Positions 6,097-56,678 of a DNA stretch of 64,000 nucleotides are shown piece by piece. Source of the DNA: Microthyrium microscopicum (taxonomy: Eukaryota). The number at the start of each line of letters is the position of its first letter. Position 1 is the stretch's first letter. Made by a program: the position numbers and the translations under genes. The notes beneath the pieces are model-generated. The model had not been told where the DNA came from. It saw only the letters and a list, made by a program, of their open reading frames with translations, and ran no database searches. The stretch lies in assembly GCA_010405405.1 (NCBI GenBank), contig MU004234.1, positions 2,391,697 through 2,455,696 on the forward strand, read 5' to 3'.

Positions 6097-8471
<2,375 letters not shown>

Positions 8472-17853: not shown

Positions 17854-17956
17854 TTGATGGGGGACATGATACTTGATGGGGGACATGATACTTGATGGGG
17901 GACATGATACTTGATGGGGGACATGATACTTGATGGGGGACATGATACTTGATGGG
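17854..17956. repeat. Perfect 19-bp minisatellite (TTGATGGGGGACATGATAC) x5.4
   Basis: Identical units start at 17854, 17873, 17892, 17911 and 17930, with a partial unit at 17949. Confidence 0.97.
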
Positions 17957-18239: not shown

Positions 18240-18807
18240 ATGCCTGGAGTTCGTAAGTCACACCTACCCGCCATGCTTATCTATCGTCTTTGTACATATG
18301 GCAGTCCCTAATATCTCATCTAATCTAGCACCGGACACAATGGACAAGCTCAAGAACATTGCCAAAGGCTTGTTCAAGCGCAAGAAGAAGACCGATACCA
18401 CAACTCCAGCCCCAACAACCACCACTGCTGCCGAGTCTTCTACCAATGCGACCAAACCGACCGAAACTGCCCCTCCAGCCCCGGCCCCAGCGACTACTCC
18501 AGCTCCCACCAGTACTGAACCATCGACTATTCCAGCTCCCACCAGCGCTGAACCATCGACTGCTGAGCCACCCGCTCCGGCACCCGCTCCTCCAGTAGCT
18601 TCTGAAGCGCCCAAGGCTGTCGAGACCTCAGCAGTTCCCACCCCAGCAGCTCCTGCGGCCAGCGCACCCACTGCGGCCCCACCAGTTGAGGAGACACCAA
18701 CAGCTCCAGTATCTACCCCGGCTGAACCAACAGCCACATCTACAGCAGTTCCGACCGAGGGCATGTCAGCGACAAGTGGTCCCTTAGGGGAGGCGGCTCA
18801 TAAGTAG
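18240..18807 (+). CDS. Small Pro/Ala/Thr-rich low-complexity protein of unknown function
   Basis: An ATG at 18240 plus the intron 18253-18328 (GTAAGT...CTAATCTAG) joins in frame to MDKLKNIAKGLFKRKKK; an alternative start is 18340. Internal repeat PAPTS(T/A)EPST; ends GMSATSGPLGEAAHK. Confidence 0.7.
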
Positions 18808-18968
18808 GAAGAGCAGCCGCGGATCCACCCGTGGGATTACGGTCATGGTCTACTTTGTGAGTTTTTTTGATGAGCTCTGGCTAGCTCCCAGCCTGAAACC
18901 CAGAAATATCAGAGATTCCAGGCTGATTTATGTATAGAACGTGAAAGTTGTGAAAAGACGATCGCTTG

Positions 18969-19214
18969 CGATGGTCACCAACAACTCTTTTGGGGAAGAA
19001 AGCCTCTGATGGGAGATAGAGCACCTGATGGGGAAAAGAGCCTGTCGTTGTGTTCTGGCTTTATTGTGTTTTTATCGATATTCTGTCTTCCGATGGTCAC
19101 CAACAACTCTTATGGGAAAGAAAGCCTCTGATGGGAGATAGAGCACTTGATGGGGAAAATAGCCTGTCATTGTGTTATGGTTTTATTGTTTGTTTTTATC
19201 GATATTCTGTCCTC
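18969..19214. repeat. Tandem duplication of a ~122-bp non-coding segment (2 diverged copies)
   Basis: CGATGGTCACCAACAACTCTT...GAAAGCCTCTGATGGGAGATAGAGCAC...TTTTTATCGATATTCTGTC starts at 18969 and again at 19091. Confidence 0.93.
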
Positions 19215-19654
19215 TTTTCAAATGTTTTGCTTCGTCTATACCCCGGTAACTCTTAGTCTTAATCAACAATGATCGATTTGGTTGTTTGTGATCAACCCTT
19301 CCCTGGGTGAACAAATTTCCCATCGACTACGATGTTCACCATATGCTACGCAAATTATCGAGTGCGTTGGTCGCCATCTAGTGCGTAAAAAAGATGCTGG
19401 TGTATCAAATGCGATGGGAGTTGAATGACCATCATAGTTGAAAGTAGTAACTGGCTCACCAGCTTTGATGCTAGAGAGTCACTATTATCTTGAAAGTGGC
19501 CTCGTGAAGTGGTTGAACATTGGCTCAAGAATTGAAGGGACCCAAGTGATAGAGCCAGCAACCCTAGCCCTAGGGGATCTGCCATATCTTAATGCCTGGC
19601 GTTAGCGGATCGTGTGCCATCATCAACATCTCCTTTACCCAAATTCCGCCCAAA

Positions 19655-21474
19655 ATGTCTCGACGAATAACACCATCCGAAACTAAGGTCGAGCAAAACC
19701 GAGCGACGCTGAAAAGTCTTGTCAAACTCGAAGGCAATAAAAGCTGTGCCGACTGCAAGAGAAACAAGCGTATGTTGCATATCGCTCCACCTAATCTTTG
19801 GAGCCTTTGCGTACAGTTCACTAATGTTCCTGAATAGATCCACGATGGGCAAGCTGGAACCTCGGTATCTTTGTTTGCATACGATGCTCCGGTATACATC
19901 GCGGAATGGGTACACACATTAGTCGCGTCAAATCGGTGGATCTAGACTCTTGGACGGACGAGCAGACACAGAGCATGATCAAGTGGGGCAACTCTCGAGC
20001 GAATAAGTTAGTGGACAGCTTTTGTTATGGTGATGGCTCTTGCTGACAGGTCTACAGATACTGGGAAGCGAAATTGGCTCCTGGTCATGTCCCCTCCGAG
20101 AACAAAATCGAGAACTATATCCGCACAAAGTACGAATCGAAGCGATGGACTATGGAAGGACCAATGCCCGATCCTTCTTCTTTGGATGATGAAAATGAGG
20201 GAGCGGTATGTTATTCAGAGATATGGCTTATGCACATGATTAATATGTCACAGGCTTCAGCTTCAGCTGCACCAGTAGAACGATCCTCATCCCAGCGACA
20301 AGCTCCAGCCTCGAGGGCGGCACCAAAGAACTCAGTCGACTTGTTTGGTGAGAGTATATCGGCTCCTCCTCGACCTTCAACTGGCCCTCCTTTGGGCACA
20401 CAACCGCCAGCCAAGGCAGATGCAGCAGTACCGAAGCAGACCAAAGCATCAGAATCACTTCTAGGGTTCGACTTCTTTGGAGCTGCACCAGCACCTGCAG
20501 CAAGGTCTACACCCGATATTACTGGTGGAGCAGCACCGCCGTCAGGTCCTTCCAAGGCCGATCTCAAGCAATCAATTCTATCATTATACTCGTCAACACC
20601 AAAACCAACTCCGCAACCACAAGTTCAATCTCCAGGTTTTGGTGGGCTCCAAAATCCTCAACAAGGCCACCAAACCCAATCTTCATTCGGTGGCATGACA
20701 GACGCATTCAGTTCCCTTGGAGTATCCTCACCTCCAATCTCTCAACCACAAAGCAAGCCATCCGCCTTTGACAGTCTCACCAGCAGCTTCGCCAGCCCGC
20801 GCGCAACATCTACAACTACCACAACTCCTTCACTTGGAGCCGGCGGAAGCTTCTTTGATGCCGCACCCAAATCACCTCCTGTCACTGAACAATCTCACAC
20901 TGCCCGCGCTCCTAGCACTGGTGGTTGGGGCGATCTCCTTTCCTCCACACCTGCCGCACCCGCTACTCAACCCAAGCCCGCTCAAACCATGTCCTCCGAC
21001 CTCTTCGATCTCAGCGCGCCAGCTCCACCCACCGCCAGCAATACCGCCCAACCAGCCGCGTCCAACCCCATGTCCTCCATGTCCTCCGCCTTCAACCTCT
21101 CCTCCAACGCACCCCAAGCAGCAGCCGCCGCACCAGCATCCAAACAAGCAGGTGGCTTCTCCAGTCTAGGCGGTATGGACGCCTGGGGCTCGTCGAACGT
21201 GTGGGGTGCAGAGTCAAATACAACTGCACCTGCAGCAGCAGCAGCTACCAACACGGCACAATCGCCACCTATGATGGACGCCGGCTGGGGGTCAAGCTCT
21301 GTGGCAACCACGAAAAGCACCAAGCCAGCTGAAACGACGATTGCAGGCGACGAGGACTTTGGCGGTTGGAACAGTGCACCGGCGGCGCCGTCACCAGCTC
21401 CAGCAAACAATGGCGGTTCAGGAGCAAAGGGATTTGGCGGTAATGATGACTTGTTTGGTAATGTGTGGGGCTAG
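19655..21474 (+). CDS. ArfGAP domain protein (Age2/SMAP-like)
   Basis: Zinc finger [47 protein letters not shown] and [14 protein letters not shown]. The low-complexity tail ends DDLFGNVWG. Three introns. Confidence 0.9.
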
Positions 21475-42818: not shown

Positions 42819-43146
42819 ATGGAGCTCTTATGAAACATGGATTGACGCTATAGAAGCGTCTGGTCGAGAAACCTGTGCAGGATCAGGAAGACGAAATAGA
42901 CTTTGGAAGAAAGCCAATAAGTATCTGTTCGGCGTTGGATTCGGGCAATCGTCAAATGGATCGAGCTTAATACCTTTAGGTTCCATGACCTACGATAGAA
43001 GTAGGCATAGAACCATGCCAATCCGTTCTTGACTAGGGATTTGTTGATGCATGGGCGTTGTATGCGATAGACTTTTTTTATTCTAGGTTCAAAGACAAAA
43101 AGTCCAAATATAGCATATTGTTTTTTTTTGTTATGAAGATTATTCC

Positions 43147-44999
43147 CTATCTTATTGCTAGTGTTTGTTTCTCATCGGTATCGTCAGTCCACGCCAAAGC
43201 CGCTTTTGTACACTCCTGCCCAGGGCCGTCATGCACTAAATCCATCCAGATGAAACTCTTCAGCATTGTCCGAATTTCTTTCCATTCGCTTTTCTTTACG
43301 CTGCGTAGGAGGGCTGAGAGTCGCGACATTATCCACTCATCATCGCTGTCATCTACGGCTGTTATCCGCGCGATCACTAACATCCATATGCGCATCTCCT
43401 TCTCCTCGTCTATAGCACTTTCGTCCAGTGCACAGATATCCCTGCGTTGATGGGCCGATAGTGTGGCGAATCGCATGCCTATTGCGCCTGTTTGCAGAAA
43501 TACGTTCGCTGCGGTTGCTGTTAGACTTGTGTGTAGAGCGCGCACGATCGGAGTTTGATCGCATGCGCTGGCATTCGGTTGATTTGTGCTTGCAGTGGTC
43601 CTGGGTAACAGAAGCAGCCGATACATGCTACTAATCAATATCTCTTGAAATAGCAACGGATTTATCTTCGTGCCTGTCTGCAACGCTATATTGGCTAGGC
43701 GCGCAAAGGCCACGAGATCAGCATATATTGCCGCCAATTCTGGATTCTGCGCGAGAACGGTGGTGATTGGTGTGTTTGGGGGCGCGAGGTATGATACCCA
43801 GGAAATGCTTGTTGCGGAGAGGAGGGTGGGTGTCTTGTTGATTGCGAGGGCGATCATTAGGTCTGCGCTAGAGGAGTGTTAGTTGTTTGGTGGGTATGAG
43901 GGAGTTGGGTGGGAGACTTACCGGCTGGCTTTCATCTGGAGTTGGATGTTTGATTGAAGTGCTCGTAGACTGGACTTTGTTAGTACAAGATTTCCGCTAC
44001 GTTCATCGTGTTCGATGAGCTCTATAGCACTTGATCAGGAACGCGTGTTATGGTAGCCATCGAACGACATGTCTTTGGCTTCATGGGATGTCGTCAAGAA
44101 ATGTAATTTTGCAGGAGTGAATCTTACCCGCCACGTAAAGTGATGAGGTGGTGGAGACCTATCATGTGTTTCTCTGCTTGCTCGATATTTCCTAAGGATT
44201 GATTAGTCTTTTCGGTGAATACCGTTCTGTGGAAAAAGGTCTCACCAAGCAAGGCAAGACTCATAATGAGATTTACGACAACACTGATTGTGGTATCACG
44301 TGTAGCGACATCACTGGAGGCTGCGATCAAGATTTGAAGCTCAGTGAGTGTCTTGCTCATATGGAATAGGCAGGCTTCAGATGTGGGTTGCTGGCGTTGC
44401 AAGTTGAAGTAAGCCTCTGTTGACCATAACACTGAGTGGGTATATGTAGTGTCATAGCGCAGGTAATCGAACCACACGGTAGAGGTGGAAGTTGCGTCAA
44501 CACATACTTCCAGTGGGTACAGAGCATGTTTTAGGATGGTGAAGACTGGAATGGAGTCAGCGAGGTCAAACCATATCAGCTATGTGAAAGGGGTTCAAAA
44601 CAAGATGCTCATTACGGCTAAGGCTGAGTTAGCTTACAATTGAATATCAGTTCTAGCGAGTATGGCTGCATTTCCTGCGCGAAGACACAAAGAGATAATC
44701 CAGAGCCCCCAAATTCGCGCCTCGGACTGGGAATCGCGAGCTCCTGCTGCCCACTGGTAGAGGTAATATCATTAGAGCTTCCATTGATCCAGGAACCAGG
44801 GATAATCTTTACTCCCTTGGGTTTGCGACGATTCTTTCCGCGCATGACATGGCTTCGTATCTCCCGGCGCGAGACCTTGTCTGGCCCCGTTGTGTTGACT
44901 AGTATAAATCTGTGGGCTGAAGATAGGTTGGCATGTGTCACTGACCATTATCTACGCATTGATAGGCTCACCATCTGTTCTAACTACAAGGTCCTTCAT
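43147..44999 (-). CDS. Fungal transcription-factor-like protein (IRSHVM-type N-terminus, no Zn2Cys6 cluster seen), about 6-7 exons
   Basis: Probable start MKDLVVRTD/AHRFILVNTTGPDKVSRREIRSHVMRGKNRRK, followed by AEKHMIGLHHLITLRGG/LRAL...KASR/ADLMIAL and MLKSFIWMDLVHDGPG. The splice phases checked are consistent. Confidence 0.72.
43970..44127 (-). mobile_element. Introner-like element (spliceosomal intron), copy A
   Basis: 158-nt phase-2 intron GTAAGA...ACTAACAAAGTCCAG, homologous along its length to the intron at 49453-49677, with a central hairpin. Confidence 0.75.
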
Positions 45000-45690
45000 T
45001 GTATCAGTCTAGCCAGCTAAAACCGAGGTCTTGGTAAGCAGAATACCGGAATCCAGTCCAGGTCAATTTGGTAGAATGTTGAGGCTCGCGAGCAGAAGGG
45101 ATGAATTCATCCCGAGTAACGAGTTATCAAGTAGCATAAAGTGCCAAGAGGCGAACAAGGACTCAATCCGGCGTAGTCTAGCCATCTGAGTTTACAGATC
45201 ACTTCGCATGTGGGCATTGATGATGAGCATCTCATCCGCTGGAGTTCGAGATGATTAACGGGCTAAGACAGAATAGGAATTCAATCAGATCTTGGCTTAA
45301 ATCTCAGCCAATCAGATGCAGGCATCTGTGGATACGCAAGGCTGAAGAGTAGAGTAGGGCGCCATCTTCGACATTTAGCGCAGGGATATTGTTTAAGTCC
45401 GCACCTTTGCGCTCGAATTCACAATCGGGCGAATGCTAGAATTATGCCGCGTTACGGGGTACGGAAGAACAATGGAATTATGGGCCCAATTATTCAAAAG
45501 GTTGATTCCACTTGAAAAGAGAGGTATTCCTTTCCTCACGAAAACACAATACCTTCATCTTCTTTACGATAATTCCATTTCAGCATCCCAGTTATTGAGC
45601 AATAAACAATAGTCAGGGGCAAACAGGCACTCCACAAAAGTTCTAAAGATTTGAAGTTGGCATCACGAAATAAGCAGAAGCACCTCCAGC

Positions 45691-46780
45691 ATGTCGACTG
45701 TGAAATCTGCTGATATGGCTCCCAACGAGCGAGGCAGCCTTTCTATCTTCATACACTCCCAATTCTTCGGCAAACACCGTCCCCCTCCAGACTCAACAGA
45801 CCTATCTTCAAAAACTGCTGTCGTTTCCGGAGCAAATGTCGGCTTGGGCTTCGAGTGTTGTCGCCAACTTCTGCACTTCAAGCTTTCGCACCTAGTTCTC
45901 GCAGTCCGATCCATTCAGCGTGGTGAAGAAGCCGCCGCAAAGCTCAAGACAGAGTACCCCAAGGCCGTGATCGAAGTCATGCAGCTTGACATGCTATCCT
46001 ACGACTCGATCCAGGCATTTGTGCAGAACATATCCAAGCTCCCCAGAATCGATATCGCCATCCTCAATGCGGGCATGGTTGCGCCTGAATTCGTCATCAA
46101 CGAAGCGACAGGACATGAGCGTGTAATTCAAACGAATTACCTATCAACTATGCTTCTTTCCATCTTGCTCCTACCAGTCCTCAAATCGAATTCATCAACA
46201 GGCATACCAGGTCGTTTGACTATTGTTGGTTCCGGAGTGTCGTACTTTGCGAAGATGCCGAATCAAAACGAGAACCCATTGCTGGCATCATTCGATGATA
46301 CAAAGATAATGGCGTGGGATCCAAACGAGCGTTATTTCTCGTCAAAGGTGATGGTATCCATGGGCCTCACCAAGATTGTCGAATATGTCAATCCCGACGA
46401 CGTTATTGTAAACGTTGTCGATCCGGGATATTGCAAAGGATCGGATTTGCATCGCGATGTGCATGGAATCCTCAGTGCCATTATAGGCTTTTCCAAGACC
46501 CTTACTGCTCGAACGGCCGTGGTGGGAGCGTCGACATATCTGGATGCTGCCGTTGTTAGAGGAAAGGATTCTCATGGCTGCTTCCTTATGGATTGGGACG
46601 TAAAACCGTAAGTCTTACATCTTGGCGGGCGTTTGACTTGTAACTAATTATTTTCCAAGATTTCCAAAGCTGATGCATGGTGAGCAAGGAAGAAAGATTG
46701 CGGACAAGTTGTGGGCGGAGACCATGAAAGAGTTCGAGTTTGCCAACGCCAAAGGAATTCTTGAAGGACTCAAGGCATGA
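45691..46780 (+). CDS. Short-chain dehydrogenase/reductase (retinol dehydrogenase/WWOX-like), 2 exons
   Basis: VSGANVGLG, ILNAG, TNYLST, YFSSK and VDPGYC. Intron at about 46608-46659; TGA at 46778-46780. Confidence 0.9.
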
Positions 46781-46943
46781 GTGTGCACTGTGTTAGTCGG
46801 CTTCTGTATAGCTTTGGTTTATTTCTTGTGTCGTTTTGGGGCGTTCTGAGAAGGATGTAGGTTGGTTTCGAATCAGTTAATGTATATGCCAGGCCTTGAA
46901 ATCTTAGCACAATCCAATATTTGACATAAACAATGCGATACTA

Positions 46944-48267
46944 TCACATTTTTGATAGTTTGAAGAGCCAGAGTGGATTGATCTCCTTGGTCCAGAATCT
47001 AGTGTCTTTGGAATCTTCAGTCAAGTCGTGCTGCCATAACTCAAGCTGTCTGTTCAGCCATGGAGTCATGGCCTTCGCAGTCTCTTTGGGCTTTTCCAAC
47101 GGCATAGGATGTCCGGAGTCTAGATAGATGGTTAGTGCTATTCAAGATAGGTCATGAAGTTCTCCTCGCAGGCACATGGCGTACCTTTTACCCACGCCCC
47201 TTCCACCATACCTGCTGCCGGCCCTCCGCTGCCGCCTCTCCCCGTTCCTGTTCGCTCAATGAGCCACTTCTGATATCCAACATGATCAGGGATTGTGGAG
47301 TTTTCAGCAAAAACGTAGAGAACCGATGGTCGAACGTTTCCCAGCCTATGCTGTATAATGTCGGGCTCCGTTCTATAAAATCCAGGTAGGATATGCGCCG
47401 CGCCCTCCCCTTCGTCATCTGGATCCTTAGCACATGGCCGTTTGTCATCAGTGGATGGTATAATCCGCATCATCGACGTGACTTCCATCATCTTTGGCGT
47501 CGTCAGTGTCACAGGAGTCTGGCCAGATACCACTGCTGATGACGAGCTTGAAACGTCGCGCAAGTCATGCTTCATAACCTTCTCAAACACTGCTGGGTCA
47601 AAAGCGGCATAGTAAGGATTCTTCAATAGGGCCTTCCGCGCTTCTTCTCGCGAAATCCATGTATCTCGTCTCCTGGCCATAGCGCGCGTTGTAATTCCGG
47701 CGAAACTGAATGCGTCTGAGCTACCACCTACTAACATTGGCTCCAGTGCAACAAGCGCAGTGAATAGTCGAGGATGTATCAATGCCGCTTGAACTATCGG
47801 ATACCCTCCATACGACTGGCCGATAGCAACCAAAGGCGGCGGCATTTCGTCTTGAAAGCTATTGACCATGTGTAGAATATCACGCGCTGCATCGTCCCAG
47901 TGAGGCTCATCGCCAACAATTTCCTCATTAATAACATACGATTGACCTTGATATAAGTGAGCAACCAAAATGACGTAGTTTCCTCAAAGATCTTACCATG
48001 CCAGGCTAAGTCGGCGGCCCATATGGAGCGAATAGGAAGACCAGTCTTCAGTAATCCCGCGAAGAACGGCTCGTAGGATTCCTTGGTCGATCCGACGCCG
48101 TGAACGAATATCACTGTCCACCCGACATCTGGTATTTTGTTAGGGGTATACTGATTGACAGAAAGTCGTAGTCTGTGCTTGGTCTCGTCTCGAACTCCAC
48201 GCCTGTATCCTCTCATATGAGAGGCTGGAATGACATGAGTCCTCAGTGTCCATATTTTAGATTCCAT
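46944..48267 (-). CDS. Alpha/beta hydrolase (Lpx1-like) with PTS1-like C-terminus SKM, 3 exons
   Basis: FVHGVGSTKESYEP, IWAADLAWH/GQS, WDDAARD, GQSYGG, RRRDTWISREEA and GHPMPLEKP; ends LFKLSKM*. Confidence 0.85.
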
Positions 48268-49016
48268 GGTAGTTTGGTGTTCAGAATTGGCTCAGTTGAT
48301 TGAGCAGAGGCCAAAACTATGGCCGCGTTAAGTTTCAATTCGACCTTTTTGAAGGAACTTGATCAGTTGCCCGTGTACGACCAGCGACGTGATTAGGAAT
48401 ACGAAATCAGACTGTTTCTGGCAGAGCAAGGGTTTGAGAGATGATCCCGAGCTCATAAACGGGACGCCCCTAATCATTCATGGTAAAATATCAGAAAAGT
48501 ACGAGTAAGCACTAAGCCACTCTCCGCACAAATGCAAAAGAGGTGGCGGAGAGAGCAGAAGGGACCGAGGTTGAACTTGAAGCTCATTGAGTCGATATCT
48601 CCTGAACTCCTCATGTCGCTAAGTTCGATTACAAGAGCAACTTCATCCAAGTTCACTTTGCAGTTACTGTGAATTATTATACAATCTGATTTCATTGAAT
48701 TCCAGTCTATCTCTAAGCTAAGCACTTCCTGTCGTCAAAAGGAATCAATTTGTGATGAATCCCAGTGACTCGCAACCAAATCCCACAAAGACCGTTAATT
48801 TTTTGGATAAGAATAAAGCAAAAATGAGCTGGGAATAGTGCAAGGTAAAGGCATCCCAGTGCCGTCCGTAATAGAAGGCAGAATTCGACAGTGACCATAA
48901 AGTTGTAGGAAAGTCAGAGAAACAAAGTCGACAGCCATCCGGAGAGAGAACTAGCAAAAGCCTCTTAAAAAAGCCAAGAACTGAACTCACTAGCCTGAGG
49001 ATGCGCAGGATAAGTC

Positions 49017-50816
49017 TTAATCCACGTCGTTCTCGTGGCGAGCAGAGCGCCGTAGCGATGAAAGCTGCATACGCTGTTCCGCCGTGAAAACGCCTTCCAG
49101 CTTGAGTCCTTGAGGTCGAGTAACTCGCTTGATCGGCAGAAACACATTGACAATGCGCTGGTCCTCTTCAGGTGTACGCTCAGTGGGCGGAGTGTTGTCG
49201 TCGACTAGTCTAATAGTGACTACTTGCATCATATGTTCGTGGTGATCTAGGATATTGGCAAAAGCCGCTATCAATGGTTTCCACAGATGGTTTCGATGCC
49301 CATAGCCAAGGTGATATTCGAACACGATACCCTTCAGATGAGTGACATGAGTATCCATCATGAATGGAGATAAAGTGCGCCATGGGGCACCAGCAGACTC
49401 GGAAAATGGATTGGCAGGTGTGATTTTATCGAGGAGCATAGCAGGGAGAAACCTGGAATTTGTTAGTTCAAGGCGACATTCAATGCAAGTGCGCTCTGAA
49501 AAGACCAAATATCATTTTCGGGACGAAACCGTAGAACACCAATCGCATCCGGTGGCTACCACAGCACTCAACTAGGAACGCACTGTGTGGTAGCCATCGG
49601 TTGCGATGAAAGAAACAGCGGTTTTTTACTTCAAGAGATGTTGTCAAGATATGTGATTAGGCGAGGGCAAAACTTACGGTTTGTTGATAACCATTGGTGA
49701 CTTGGGTATTTCGCGAATCTGTTGGCTCATCCATCTGCTCACCGTCAACACGCCTGGAGTCGACATATCCCGTTGTCGAACTTCCTGATACGGTTTCAAG
49801 AATTTATGCAGCAGTGAATGATCCGCCCCGGAGTTGTTGTGAAGATTTGCAAGGCTTGCCAGCTCTGCAGGAGTCGCAAGATTCCAGATGGTATTATCCA
49901 ATTCAATTTGCATTTCGAATGGATTTTTTCGATAGCTGGCGTACTCCATAATTTTGCGCAAGATTTGGCCCTTCACTCTATGTTCTTTGGGTCCACTGAA
50001 TACCTGCGCGAGCTCTTGAAGAGAAAACCCCTTTCGGCCTTTCATGCCCTCAATTATCTCAGCCTTCTCGGTGATTGTGTCGAAGAGACCACCAATTTCA
50101 ACAGATTGAATTCCTCGTAGACTTTTCAGCGCCAACAGTGCTTGACGAATCTGCGAATACACATAGCAACCGAATGGGCCTGGTGAAGACACAGCAGGGC
50201 AGGAGTTCAGGTGTAGCTCGTGATAGTCGGACGAGACGGTGAGCTTGAATTTCTTGAGCTTGTGTTCATGCTCAGTCCAAACTTTGACGAGCTGGGTTAA
50301 TAATGTGATTAGCCGATCGTATTGATCTTCGGACTCATTGCGTGCAATAGAGTAATGGTCTGGGGTGACCCAAACAAAATGAAGTTCAACTTCTGGTAGA
50401 TTGGCCAGTAGATCTGAGGACATGCCGTTCTTCTCTAGCTTCCAGCCCTTGGGAGGAAGTTGTTCCATAATCAATGGTACACGCTTTAGGATTTCCTTTG
50501 CCTCGCCCGAGACTTGCTTGTTGAGAAGTAGCAGTGGGTGAGCGCGGAGCTTGCCCTTTCCATGCGGCTTGCACAATGAATTGAAATCCAAAGCCTCATG
50601 GTATATCATGTTGCGCAACTCTCCGGGCAGATACATGAATGGAAAAGTTGCCAGTTTCTGCTTGATCTGGGCTCGAGTTTTTACGGTCGACAGCACGATA
50701 TTGAAGGTGGATTGTCGCTTCTTTGCAGACTGCGTGCCATTGGCAGATGCGGAGAGCCGCTTTTTGACAGACGGCGTGCTATTGGCAGAGATGGAAGTTC
50801 GCTTCTTGGGAGCCAT
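49017..50816 (-). CDS. F-box-like protein of unknown function, 2 exons
   Basis: Basic N-terminus, F-box-like FPFMYLPGELRNMIYHEAL and LLLLNKQVSGEA. The intron 49453-49677 joins the 380-aa and downstream ORFs in frame (VINKP/FLPAM). Confidence 0.75.
49453..49677 (-). mobile_element. Introner-like element (spliceosomal intron), copy B
   Basis: 225-nt phase-2 intron GTAAGT...ACTAACAAATTCCAG with a 22-nt inverted repeat (49542-49563 / 49586-49607, 20/22 complementary), homologous to copy A. Confidence 0.75.
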
Positions 50817-54981: not shown

Positions 54982-56678
54982 ATGGCAGAGTCAATATCGA
55001 CCATGCATTCACCAGGAAATACCCATTCCTCTGTTCATGAGTCTCCAGCTCCAGTTTACTCACCATTGTACTCAGTCGACCCTGACCAGGAACGAGGAAT
55101 CCCTTCTGGAAAGGATACGAAGCTTGCGACCAATTATGCTTCCTATAACCACCCAGACATACAGTCACCTGGATTGGAATCGGTAGATTATTCTCACAGT
55201 GGCGGATTGGAAGTAGTACCTCAGCAATACCCACAACACCAACAACAATACGCAAACCAAGGGCAAGGACAGTACGCCTACCCGCAAGAAAAGGGTCAGT
55301 ATGGCTATGCCGAGAACGCTCAACCTTCACCACCGATGGAGGAACAACAGAAGAGACACAAAAAGGTGATATGTGGATGTATACCGCTTTGGCTTCTTAT
55401 TGGAGCCATAGTTTTCATTTCGATATTGGCTTTAGCACTCGGTTTAGGAATTGGATTAGGACTGAAAAAGCACAGGTAAAATGCTACCTGTTTTCGAGAG
55501 ACTCGGCATATGCTAACATAATGTGATAGCTCAGGTGTATCCGATGGGCAACTAAATCCAGCGTTCATGTCCAAAGTCGGTGCCTTCAATGGAACTGGTA
55601 TCGCTATAGCGTCCTATTCTTTCTCACAGGGAGGTTATGGTGTACTAAACGCATATTTTCAACACCACACAGGCCAACTGAGAAAGCTACAGCTCAACAC
55701 TGACGGCTCGTGGACTGGAGGAGATGCAACTACTATCATTGCTACTGATGCGCGAAATGCGACCCCTATTTCTGCCGTGGCGTATGCTATGGACTCGATT
55801 GCAACAGTAAGTTAATACCTATCGTCCGCTTCAAGGTCCAAATATTGGGTGCTGACAACTCCTAGTGGCATATATTCTATATCGATCAGAACAACCTGGT
55901 CAAAGAACGAATCAGCGACAACGTTACAAACTCCTGGCGCGACGGACCTATCAACCAGCTTAGTCTAAAAGCCATGGATCACCCCAATGTTGGTCTACAA
56001 GCTTGCTGGTATGGCAGCTTTTACGGTAGTGCCAACTACACACATTCCCCAGTCCCAGGAACCGGATCAAACGACACTGCTAAAGATTCCGTCATCGGTA
56101 TGCATCTTTGGTACGGCAGAGATGCTACCACTCAAGAAGAAGTCAACTGGACATATAACACCACCCAGTGGTACGTGCAGGACGAGTTCACCGCCAACGG
56201 TCACGCAGGAGTCGGCTGCTACTCATGGGGTCCTGGAAGTGTATCCTATGTCATGATGGTCAATCTCAACAACCAAGTCAACGTCATGTGGAAAGATCTC
56301 AACGCATCCGTCGCTTCCACTACTCAACATCCCGTTGGTGTCTGGACAAACTCGTCCGCTGTTATCCCCAATGTAATGTCAAACACGTCGCTCGGCTATA
56401 CCAATTACTTCTATGTCCAACAGGCTGATGGCGCAATTGCTGGCCATAACATTAGCTTTGATGCAGAGCGCACACAACTGATGACCGCCCAGATGTTTAC
56501 CATTCCTCAGAAACCCCTGGCCGGCTCCCATTTTTCCGTCACGGCTGTGCCTAATAAATCCGGCGGCGATCAGCTTATGGTTTTCAACCAAGACAACGGG
56601 ACCGACATTACTGAAAATCTTCGAGACATATCTTCTGGACAGTGGTCATACAGCAGTCTTCCCGTGCCTAATGTCTGA
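54982..56678 (+). CDS. Single-pass membrane protein with a fungal fucose-specific lectin-like beta-propeller, 3 exons
   Basis: Disordered N-terminus, then KKVICGC plus TM helix ...LALGLGIGLGL. Propeller-type repeats follow: AYFQHHTGQLR, ARNATPISAVAY, WHIFYIDQNNLVKE, VFNQDNGTDITE. Introns at about 55476-55529 and 55807-55865. Confidence 0.72.

Follow-up and report, generated by a model that had tools for sequence, protein, structure and literature searches.

How new spliceosomal introns originate is a long-standing open question, and fungal introner-like elements (ILEs) are, to our knowledge, the main example without a known transposition signature. Herein, we ask whether two long introns of Microthyrium microscopicum, a Dothideomycete of the order Microthyriales, are members of such a family. 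Both lie in a stretch of 64,000 nt (contig MU004234.1 of assembly GCA_010405405.1, positions 2,391,697 to 2,455,696), which is called the window and to which all positions below refer. Intron A (43970-44127) and intron B (49453-49677) are read on the minus strand and interrupt different genes. The original prediction, made from the letters of the window, had taken them for diverged copies of an intron-gain family. An old and degenerate ILE family is also the reading that we favor, with a probability of about 0.6. The evidence for it is the splicing of both introns, their likeness over nearly their whole length, and a palindromic core that recurs elsewhere in the genome.

Splicing and homology of introns A and B

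RNA contigs of run X5, the only RNA run, were placed on 43800-49900, and their exons were identical to the window. The contigs join over eight gaps, each reading CT..AC on the plus strand and thus corresponding to a GT..AG intron. Exactly 158 nt are omitted at A and 225 nt at B (where moving the cut by +2 gives 49453-49677), so both introns are spliced at the borders that had been proposed. None of the eight splice joints was present in the DNA run X1, which comprises 44 Mb of contigs, includes the window's own contig and may be the source of the window. Read on the minus strand, intron A runs GTAAGA...ACTAAC...CAG and intron B GTAAGT...ACTAAC...CAG. Strand and phase were as predicted: both introns are in phase 2, A after nucleotide 671 of the 1437 of its coding sequence (CDS) and B after nucleotide 1139 of 1572. 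Intron length was compared among the eight RNA-verified introns of 43800-49900 only, a list of long introns called ab initio having been discarded as too noisy. No other intron of this stretch is as long as A or B: the remaining six measure 50, 54, 54, 55, 65, and 92 nt, so that A and B are about 2-4 times longer than their neighbors, and their unusual length is confirmed.

The identities that had been counted by hand between A and B proved exact: without gaps, 36 of the first 49 nt are identical, 28 of the 37 nt of the core (A66-102 against B79-115) and 18 of the last 20 nt. When each intron was searched against the window with blastn, three collinear A-B blocks were likewise returned, the best high-scoring segment pair (HSP) being A20-57/B20-57 with 79% identity (E 6e-4 in the 64-kb database). 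The exon flanks agree at 8/30 positions upstream and 8/30 downstream, which is the level of chance and bears out the claim that they are dissimilar. In a MAFFT alignment of A and B, 109 of 158 columns were identical (31 transitions, 18 transversions; Jukes-Cantor distance 0.40), and overall identity was about 69-74%.

The likeness was assessed against 1000 dinucleotide shuffles of the interior of B, in which the donor hexamer and the final 20 nt of B were left in place. The global A-B score was 39.75, compared with 4.6 ± 3.9 in the shuffles (z 9.1), none of which reached it. The local score was 36.5, against 5-10 in all 27 other pairs among the eight verified introns. The 5' block without the donor hexamer had 36 identical columns of 46 and scored 22.5 against 7.8 ± 1.5 (0/1000 shuffles), and 9 of the 11 positions outside ACTAAC and CAG were identical in the last 20 nt (hand count). 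The similarity begins some 12 nt inside the donor and extends as far as the acceptor. It was not significant (350/1000 shuffles) in the segment that separates the hairpin from the final 20 nt, where A is shorter than B by about 50 nt. Judged from these alignments, the homology of A and B covers almost the entire introns and leaves out the exons. PMC12130899 quotes rates of 1e-9 to 1.3e-8 per site per year, at which a distance of 0.40 would place the split of A and B roughly 15 to 200 million years ago.

Both host proteins are 100% identical to hypothetical proteins of M. microscopicum. The CDS of gene 2 without intron B gives the 524-amino-acid (aa) NCBI protein letter for letter. For gene 1, the RNA-based model has 479 aa; without its first 33 residues it is the 446-aa NCBI protein, in which the 30-aa stretch spanning the junction of intron A is present. 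The two proteins are unrelated (best BLASTP E 0.18, with the largest exons), in line with the original prediction. In a word-based protein search, the gene 2 protein had one weak homologue (E 3.9e-5) and the gene 1 protein had none; by these searches, both are orphans. The labels 'transcription factor-like' and 'F-box-like' that the genes had been given are unsupported, because Pfam, searched with exons and whole proteins, placed no family above threshold: gene 1 had no match, and gene 2 only a sub-threshold 2EXR match (E 0.053; 15.1 bits against a cut-off of 24.8).

The gene model of gene 1 has further features. An upstream ATG at 44973-44999, 33 codons before the NCBI start, accounts for the difference between 479 and 446 aa; it sits in an extra 5' exon, ahead of a verified 55-nt intron (44917-44971). 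Gene 1 also has two very short exons, 44128-44191 (64 nt) and 43922-43969 (48 nt), bounded by three RNA-verified introns within 380 nt, namely 44192-44245, A and 43868-43921.

The palindromic core and its dispersed copies

The center shared by A and B is an imperfect palindrome of about 78 nt. The common hairpin that had been predicted was recovered, with arms of 21 nt in A and 22 nt in B (Table 1). Both pairs of arms are internal; they span roughly positions 63-118 of intron A and 71-136 of intron B. The core of B folds at -36.7 kcal/mol (z -5.0), and none of 200 shuffles was as stable; the core of A folds at -18.9 kcal/mol (z -2.3). The whole intron B gave a z of -2.04. Among A, B and a third copy, C (Table 1), three of the 27 consensus pairs have changed on both sides. 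The antisense hairpin folds more stably, and the arm mismatches of A include two wobble-compatible changes per strand (hand count); no strand is deduced from this.

No terminal inverted repeats were found at the termini of A and B, where the sole inverted repeat is the internal one. A consistent target-site duplication was also absent from their ends, which carry mutually unrelated direct repeats of 4 nt (A) and 6 nt (B); in the control, 4-nt direct repeats occurred at 890 of 2000 random site pairs. This agrees with the earlier statement that no such duplication is evident. The whole introns were considered as a miniature inverted-repeat transposable element (MITE) or another DNA transposon with terminal inverted repeats and rejected as such, both terminal inverted repeats and a target-site duplication being missing. 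Considered by itself, the palindrome of about 78 nt does have inverted repeats in its two arms; it is flanked by 4-5-nt repeats, with no target-site duplication above the control rate.

A profile of A and B, from which C was excluded, was searched against the window with nhmmer and found only one extra place, 19316-19385, on both strands (E 0.016 on plus, 0.27 on minus). This is copy C. Its surroundings are non-coding: the gene before it ends at 18807, and the ArfGAP-like open reading frame (ORF) after it has its first ATG at about 19655. The local alignment of core C to core B was reached by 12 of 1000 shuffles (p about 0.012), and C agrees with the 3' arm consensus of the remaining genomic copies at 17 of 19 positions (0/500 shuffles). 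A covariance model of the core, trained on A, B and C, was run on the window with filters off and returned only its three training sequences and their reverse strands, the next matches having E of at least 1.3. Homology of the flanks of C to those of A and B had been suspected by eye; shuffles gave it no support. Complete introns account for two of the three window copies, though introns make up a small share of the DNA.

Directly upstream of C, at 18965-19214, a unit of about 122 nt occurs twice in tandem, the two copies being 91% identical. Each unit contains a 12-mer with two mismatches to the hairpin arm motif and a stretch like the outer arm of the genomic copies. The units may be fragments of the element; their nhmmer E was just 0.9, and the covariance model missed them.

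Outside the window, 11 other X1 contigs match 44011/44024-44063 with 6-10 mismatches over 40-53 nt (about 82-85% identity), beyond what a binomial estimate expects by chance in 44 Mb. The seven X1 records listed have depths of about 88-108, which is single-copy compared with 101.3 for the window's own contig. In three of these seven, the core match lies within 240 nt of a contig end. Such positions near the ends of contigs of 20-45 kb suggest that some copies are similar enough to interrupt assembly at 31-mers. Three further contigs with the core were found in the X5 RNA run. In all, there are at least 14 diverged core copies, one of them in non-coding DNA, and the core is dispersed to other loci including that non-coding site. 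The 3' arm consensus of the other copies, taken from their loose ends, matches B 118-143 at 21 of 26 positions (0/500 shuffles). The original prediction had also expected a high genome-wide copy number: the core is multicopy, as copy C and the 11 contigs attest, and 'high' is not supported, 11 further loci at 80% identity or more being modest compared with the 24-377 ILEs per species reported elsewhere (PMC3609843, Table 1). Runs X6 and X7 yielded just short low-depth pieces identical to the window and were uninformative on sister species. Metagenome matches to a degenerate 20-nt arm motif (at least 120 loci) were set aside as chance, since none of 120 fitted the A/B profile at E of 0.01 or less.

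Table 1. Positions in the window of the two introns, their shared parts and copy C
Feature	Positions	Strand	Remarks
Intron A	43970-44127	-	158 nt, phase 2; gene 1, hypothetical protein BT63DRAFT_478723; shorter, more degenerate copy
Intron B	49453-49677	-	225 nt, phase 2; gene 2, hypothetical protein BT63DRAFT_454785; fuller copy
Conserved 5' block of A	44071-44115	-	intron positions 13-57, local alignment to B 12-57
Conserved 5' block of B	49621-49666	-	intron positions 12-57, aligned to A block
Palindromic core of A	43998-44075	-	arms 44010-44030 / 44045-44065, 21 nt, 71% complementary
Palindromic core of B	49535-49612	-	arms 49542-49563 / 49586-49607, 22 nt, 91% complementary, 22-nt loop
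Branch-site and acceptor block of A	43970-43989	-	last 20 intron nt, 18/20 against B
Branch-site and acceptor block of B	49453-49472	-	last 20 intron nt
Copy C of palindromic core	19317-19422	+	same arms, 28-nt insertion in 3' arm

Self-blast of the window (word 11, E < 1e-3) revealed no further family of dispersed repeats. A direct repeat of 46 nt, without mismatches, was noted at 17854-17899 and 17911-17956, where minus-strand ORFs encode the repeated peptide SSIMSPIKYHVPHQVSCPP, and self-blast showed a 44-nt palindrome at 505-548 (82% self-complementary). A crude scan for splice signals proposed long candidate introns of about 245-290 nt with good signals at 19770-20057, 6301-6549 and 55272-55529; these are predicted only, and none is like the A/B family. 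The ORF 45691-46611 (+) is 100% identical to an NCBI short-chain dehydrogenase of M. microscopicum. It is convergent with a minus-strand gene that has introns at 47120-47184 and 47947-47996. A single RNA contig (45586-48409) spans both genes, so their 3' ends overlap or abut in the transcript assembly.

Readings of the A/B family

Under the favored reading, the mobile unit would be the whole intron and not just the palindrome. The unit would measure about 160-225 nt, with the donor GTAAG followed by a 5' block of some 46 nt, the roughly 78-nt palindrome and a 3' part that varies, and would close with ACTAAC...CAG. Because such a unit brings its own splice signals, its insertion would be harmless: a copy landing in a transcribed exon would be excised by the spliceosome and leave the host protein intact. 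An insertion that splices itself out in this way could have let the element settle in two unrelated genes. A and B were presumably created by insertion, and the palindrome may have a part in mobilization. Homologous, spliced, long introns with a hairpin in unrelated genes, together with a dispersed core, agree with the prediction of an introner family, and we regard that prediction as partly supported overall, the many intron members and recent gains of a true introner-like family being putative here.

Several observations weigh against this reading. The flanks of C are not significantly like those of A and B (634/1000, 992/1000, and 526/1000 shuffles; the comparison of C3 with B3 gave the sole lower value, 42/1000), and C lies outside any CDS and lacks a strong donor site. 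At 80% identity or more, the other contigs match the core of A only, a fraction of 0.92 of the placed sequence continuing unlike it. The 30-nt flanks of the other copies are only marginally like those of B (12/500 and 24/500 shuffles), and the agreement of 0.67-0.77 in the flank consensus is explicable by the hairpin arm alone. Given this marginal likeness, the multicopy unit could be just the palindrome. The firm statement that the alignments permit is therefore a divided one: the palindrome of about 78 nt is the multicopy unit, and homology from end to end is firm for the A-B pair only. In addition, the fold of the whole intron A was indistinguishable from that of shuffles (z -0.88). Finally, M. 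microscopicum is scored with zero introner families in Dataset S1 of PMC12130899, which is the largest published screen. The pipeline of that screen requires an all-against-all intron blast E < 1e-5 and members in at least four genes of different paralogy groups. The A-B pair falls short of the first threshold, since its best HSP has an E of 6e-4 even in a 64-kb database, and only two intron members are known here.

Much of this would be explained by a palindromic, MITE-like repeat of about 78 nt that is scattered genome-wide, plus one isolated duplication or transposition of an intron containing it. The duplicated intron would then be what Collemare et al. 2013 call a 'low-copy intron' and not part of a proliferating family. 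We consider this possible, though clearly less probable than an ILE family. It would account for other genomic copies that resemble A and B just in the core, for the non-coding location and dissimilar flanks of C, for the arm-like motifs in the tandem 122-nt repeat beside C, and for the zero score in the published screen. Both of its components have precedents. What looked like high-copy introns in three fungi turned out to be repeats sitting inside regular introns, and nearly every fungus examined has low-copy duplicated introns (PMC3609843). However, what A and B have in common includes, besides the palindrome, the 5' block (about 46 nt) and the final 20 nt, and two of the three window copies are complete introns. 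A scattered repeat would still need a whole intron to be copied into an unrelated gene, and the palindrome lacks a target-site duplication above the control rate at its flanks.

It is very unlikely that the core is an intron-hosted functional RNA, such as a small nucleolar RNA (snoRNA), another structured non-coding RNA or a hairpin substrate of Dicer, conserved by its function. The conserved hairpin, with three compensatory pairs among three sequences, is what such an RNA would show, and a stem of 21-27 bp would suit the precursor of a small RNA. On the other hand, Rfam release 15 gave no match at E up to 1 on either strand of 43000-50500, so that no snoRNA match explains the core, and no box C/D or H/ACA motifs were seen by eye at homologous positions of A and B. 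Moreover, at least 14 diverged copies, one of them non-coding, suit a repeat better than a gene, and the likeness of A and B also covers the 5' block outside the hairpin and the splice-site regions. The last explanation, chance together with a shared fungal consensus for splice signals, is refuted: GTAAG, ACTAAC and CAG do inflate the counts at the intron ends, but with these signals fixed no shuffle equaled the A-B score, no other verified pair came near it, and independent genomic copies of the core exist.

If A and B do belong to an ILE family, its palindrome may say something about the way in which such elements move. We offer, as a conjecture that is improbable on present evidence, that ascomycete ILEs move as DNA through a central palindrome, which would form a hairpin or cruciform recognized by an enzyme, and not by reverse splicing. 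In a variant of this idea, the hairpins may also be processed to small RNAs that police the family. Were it true, the core would be expected as spliced introns, as bare copies and as tandem fragments in non-coding DNA, and the youngest copies would still break assembly at 31-mers; the unsolved propagation of fungal introners would then have a concrete handle.

With this locus, the Microthyriales, an order without reported introners, gain a pair of homologous introns that interrupt unrelated genes and whose splicing is verified. That the A-B pair lies in a genome scored zero leads to the conclusion that screens based on similarity thresholds miss old families. The internal palindrome is common to the copies outside introns and can be tracked genome-wide, where it bears on spread as DNA or as RNA. 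Should the other copies be bare palindromic repeats, the finding reduces to one intron duplication and an ordinary small repeat.

Comparison with known systems

The full-text literature on the species combined with introns held nothing on introners, as judged by titles and the beginnings of abstracts, and a search pairing introners with Dothideomycetes under those terms returned no paper. Together with the zero entry in Dataset S1 of PMC12130899, this fits the earlier suggestion that the family is possibly undescribed in this lineage.

ILEs have been described as near-identical, high-copy introns in unrelated genes, whose length is about double that of regular introns and which have a lower folding energy, show compensatory changes and decay quickly (PMC3609843). 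A and B resemble them in many respects: they have canonical spliceosomal signals, lie in unrelated host genes of the same fungal class, and are longer than regular introns by a comparable factor (158 and 225 nt against 50-92 nt). They also have a predicted structure with compensatory changes, no known transposase, and decay in both sequence and length. An ILE cluster was recognized when a hidden Markov model search enlarged it more than twofold, to tens to hundreds per genome (PMC3609843). Unlike such near-identical copies, of which a species has 24-377, two intron copies are known here at about 69-74% identity, and the other 11 or more are known as core only. The Dothideomycete hosts of ILEs include Fulvia fulva, Dothistroma septosporum, Zymoseptoria tritici, Pseudocercospora fijiensis, Hysterium pulicare and Parastagonospora nodorum (PMC3609843; PMC4457414). 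These belong to the Mycosphaerellales, Pleosporales and Hysteriales, unlike M. microscopicum of the Microthyriales, and A and B are likened to their ILEs by description, not by consensus sequence.

In Zymoseptoria, introns of more than average length have homologues in other introns and also in intergenic DNA, where copy C would be comparable; the latter are termed intergenic intron homolog elements (IIHEs). IIHEs are defined by at least 80% identity over at least 80% of the length and sometimes have target-site duplications (Wu et al. 2017, PMC5647799). In contrast, C matches the core only, at low identity, and no target-site duplication was found.

The sister (stw)introns of the Hypoxylaceae have proliferated and are similar to A and B in occupying unrelated genes, in having large inverted repeats able to fold into a long hairpin, in lacking flanking duplications and an Rfam match, and in forming a true intron only on the coding strand (Fekete et al. 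2021, PMC8469720). They differ in that their terminal inverted repeats of 45-55 nt extend to the intron ends, whereas the palindrome of A and B is internal, between 5' and 3' parts that are not palindromic; many of their copies are nested introns with a disrupted donor, and the hosts are Sordariomycetes. This comparison, too, is by description. The 10-nt palindrome WTTCTAGAAA of that family was not seen on reading A and B, for which no formal search was made.

The introners of Gozashti et al. (bioRxiv 10.1101/2022.06.06.494994) provide a close parallel, in that similarity reaches the exon-intron borders and does not extend into the exons, and the host genes are non-paralogous. Ascomycete introner families are described in the same source as devoid of terminal inverted repeats and target-site duplications, and A and B, with neither terminal inverted repeats nor a consistent target-site duplication, are like them. 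Collectively, the kind of element considered here is probably one already known in related fungi, of which A and B would be a further example in a new order.

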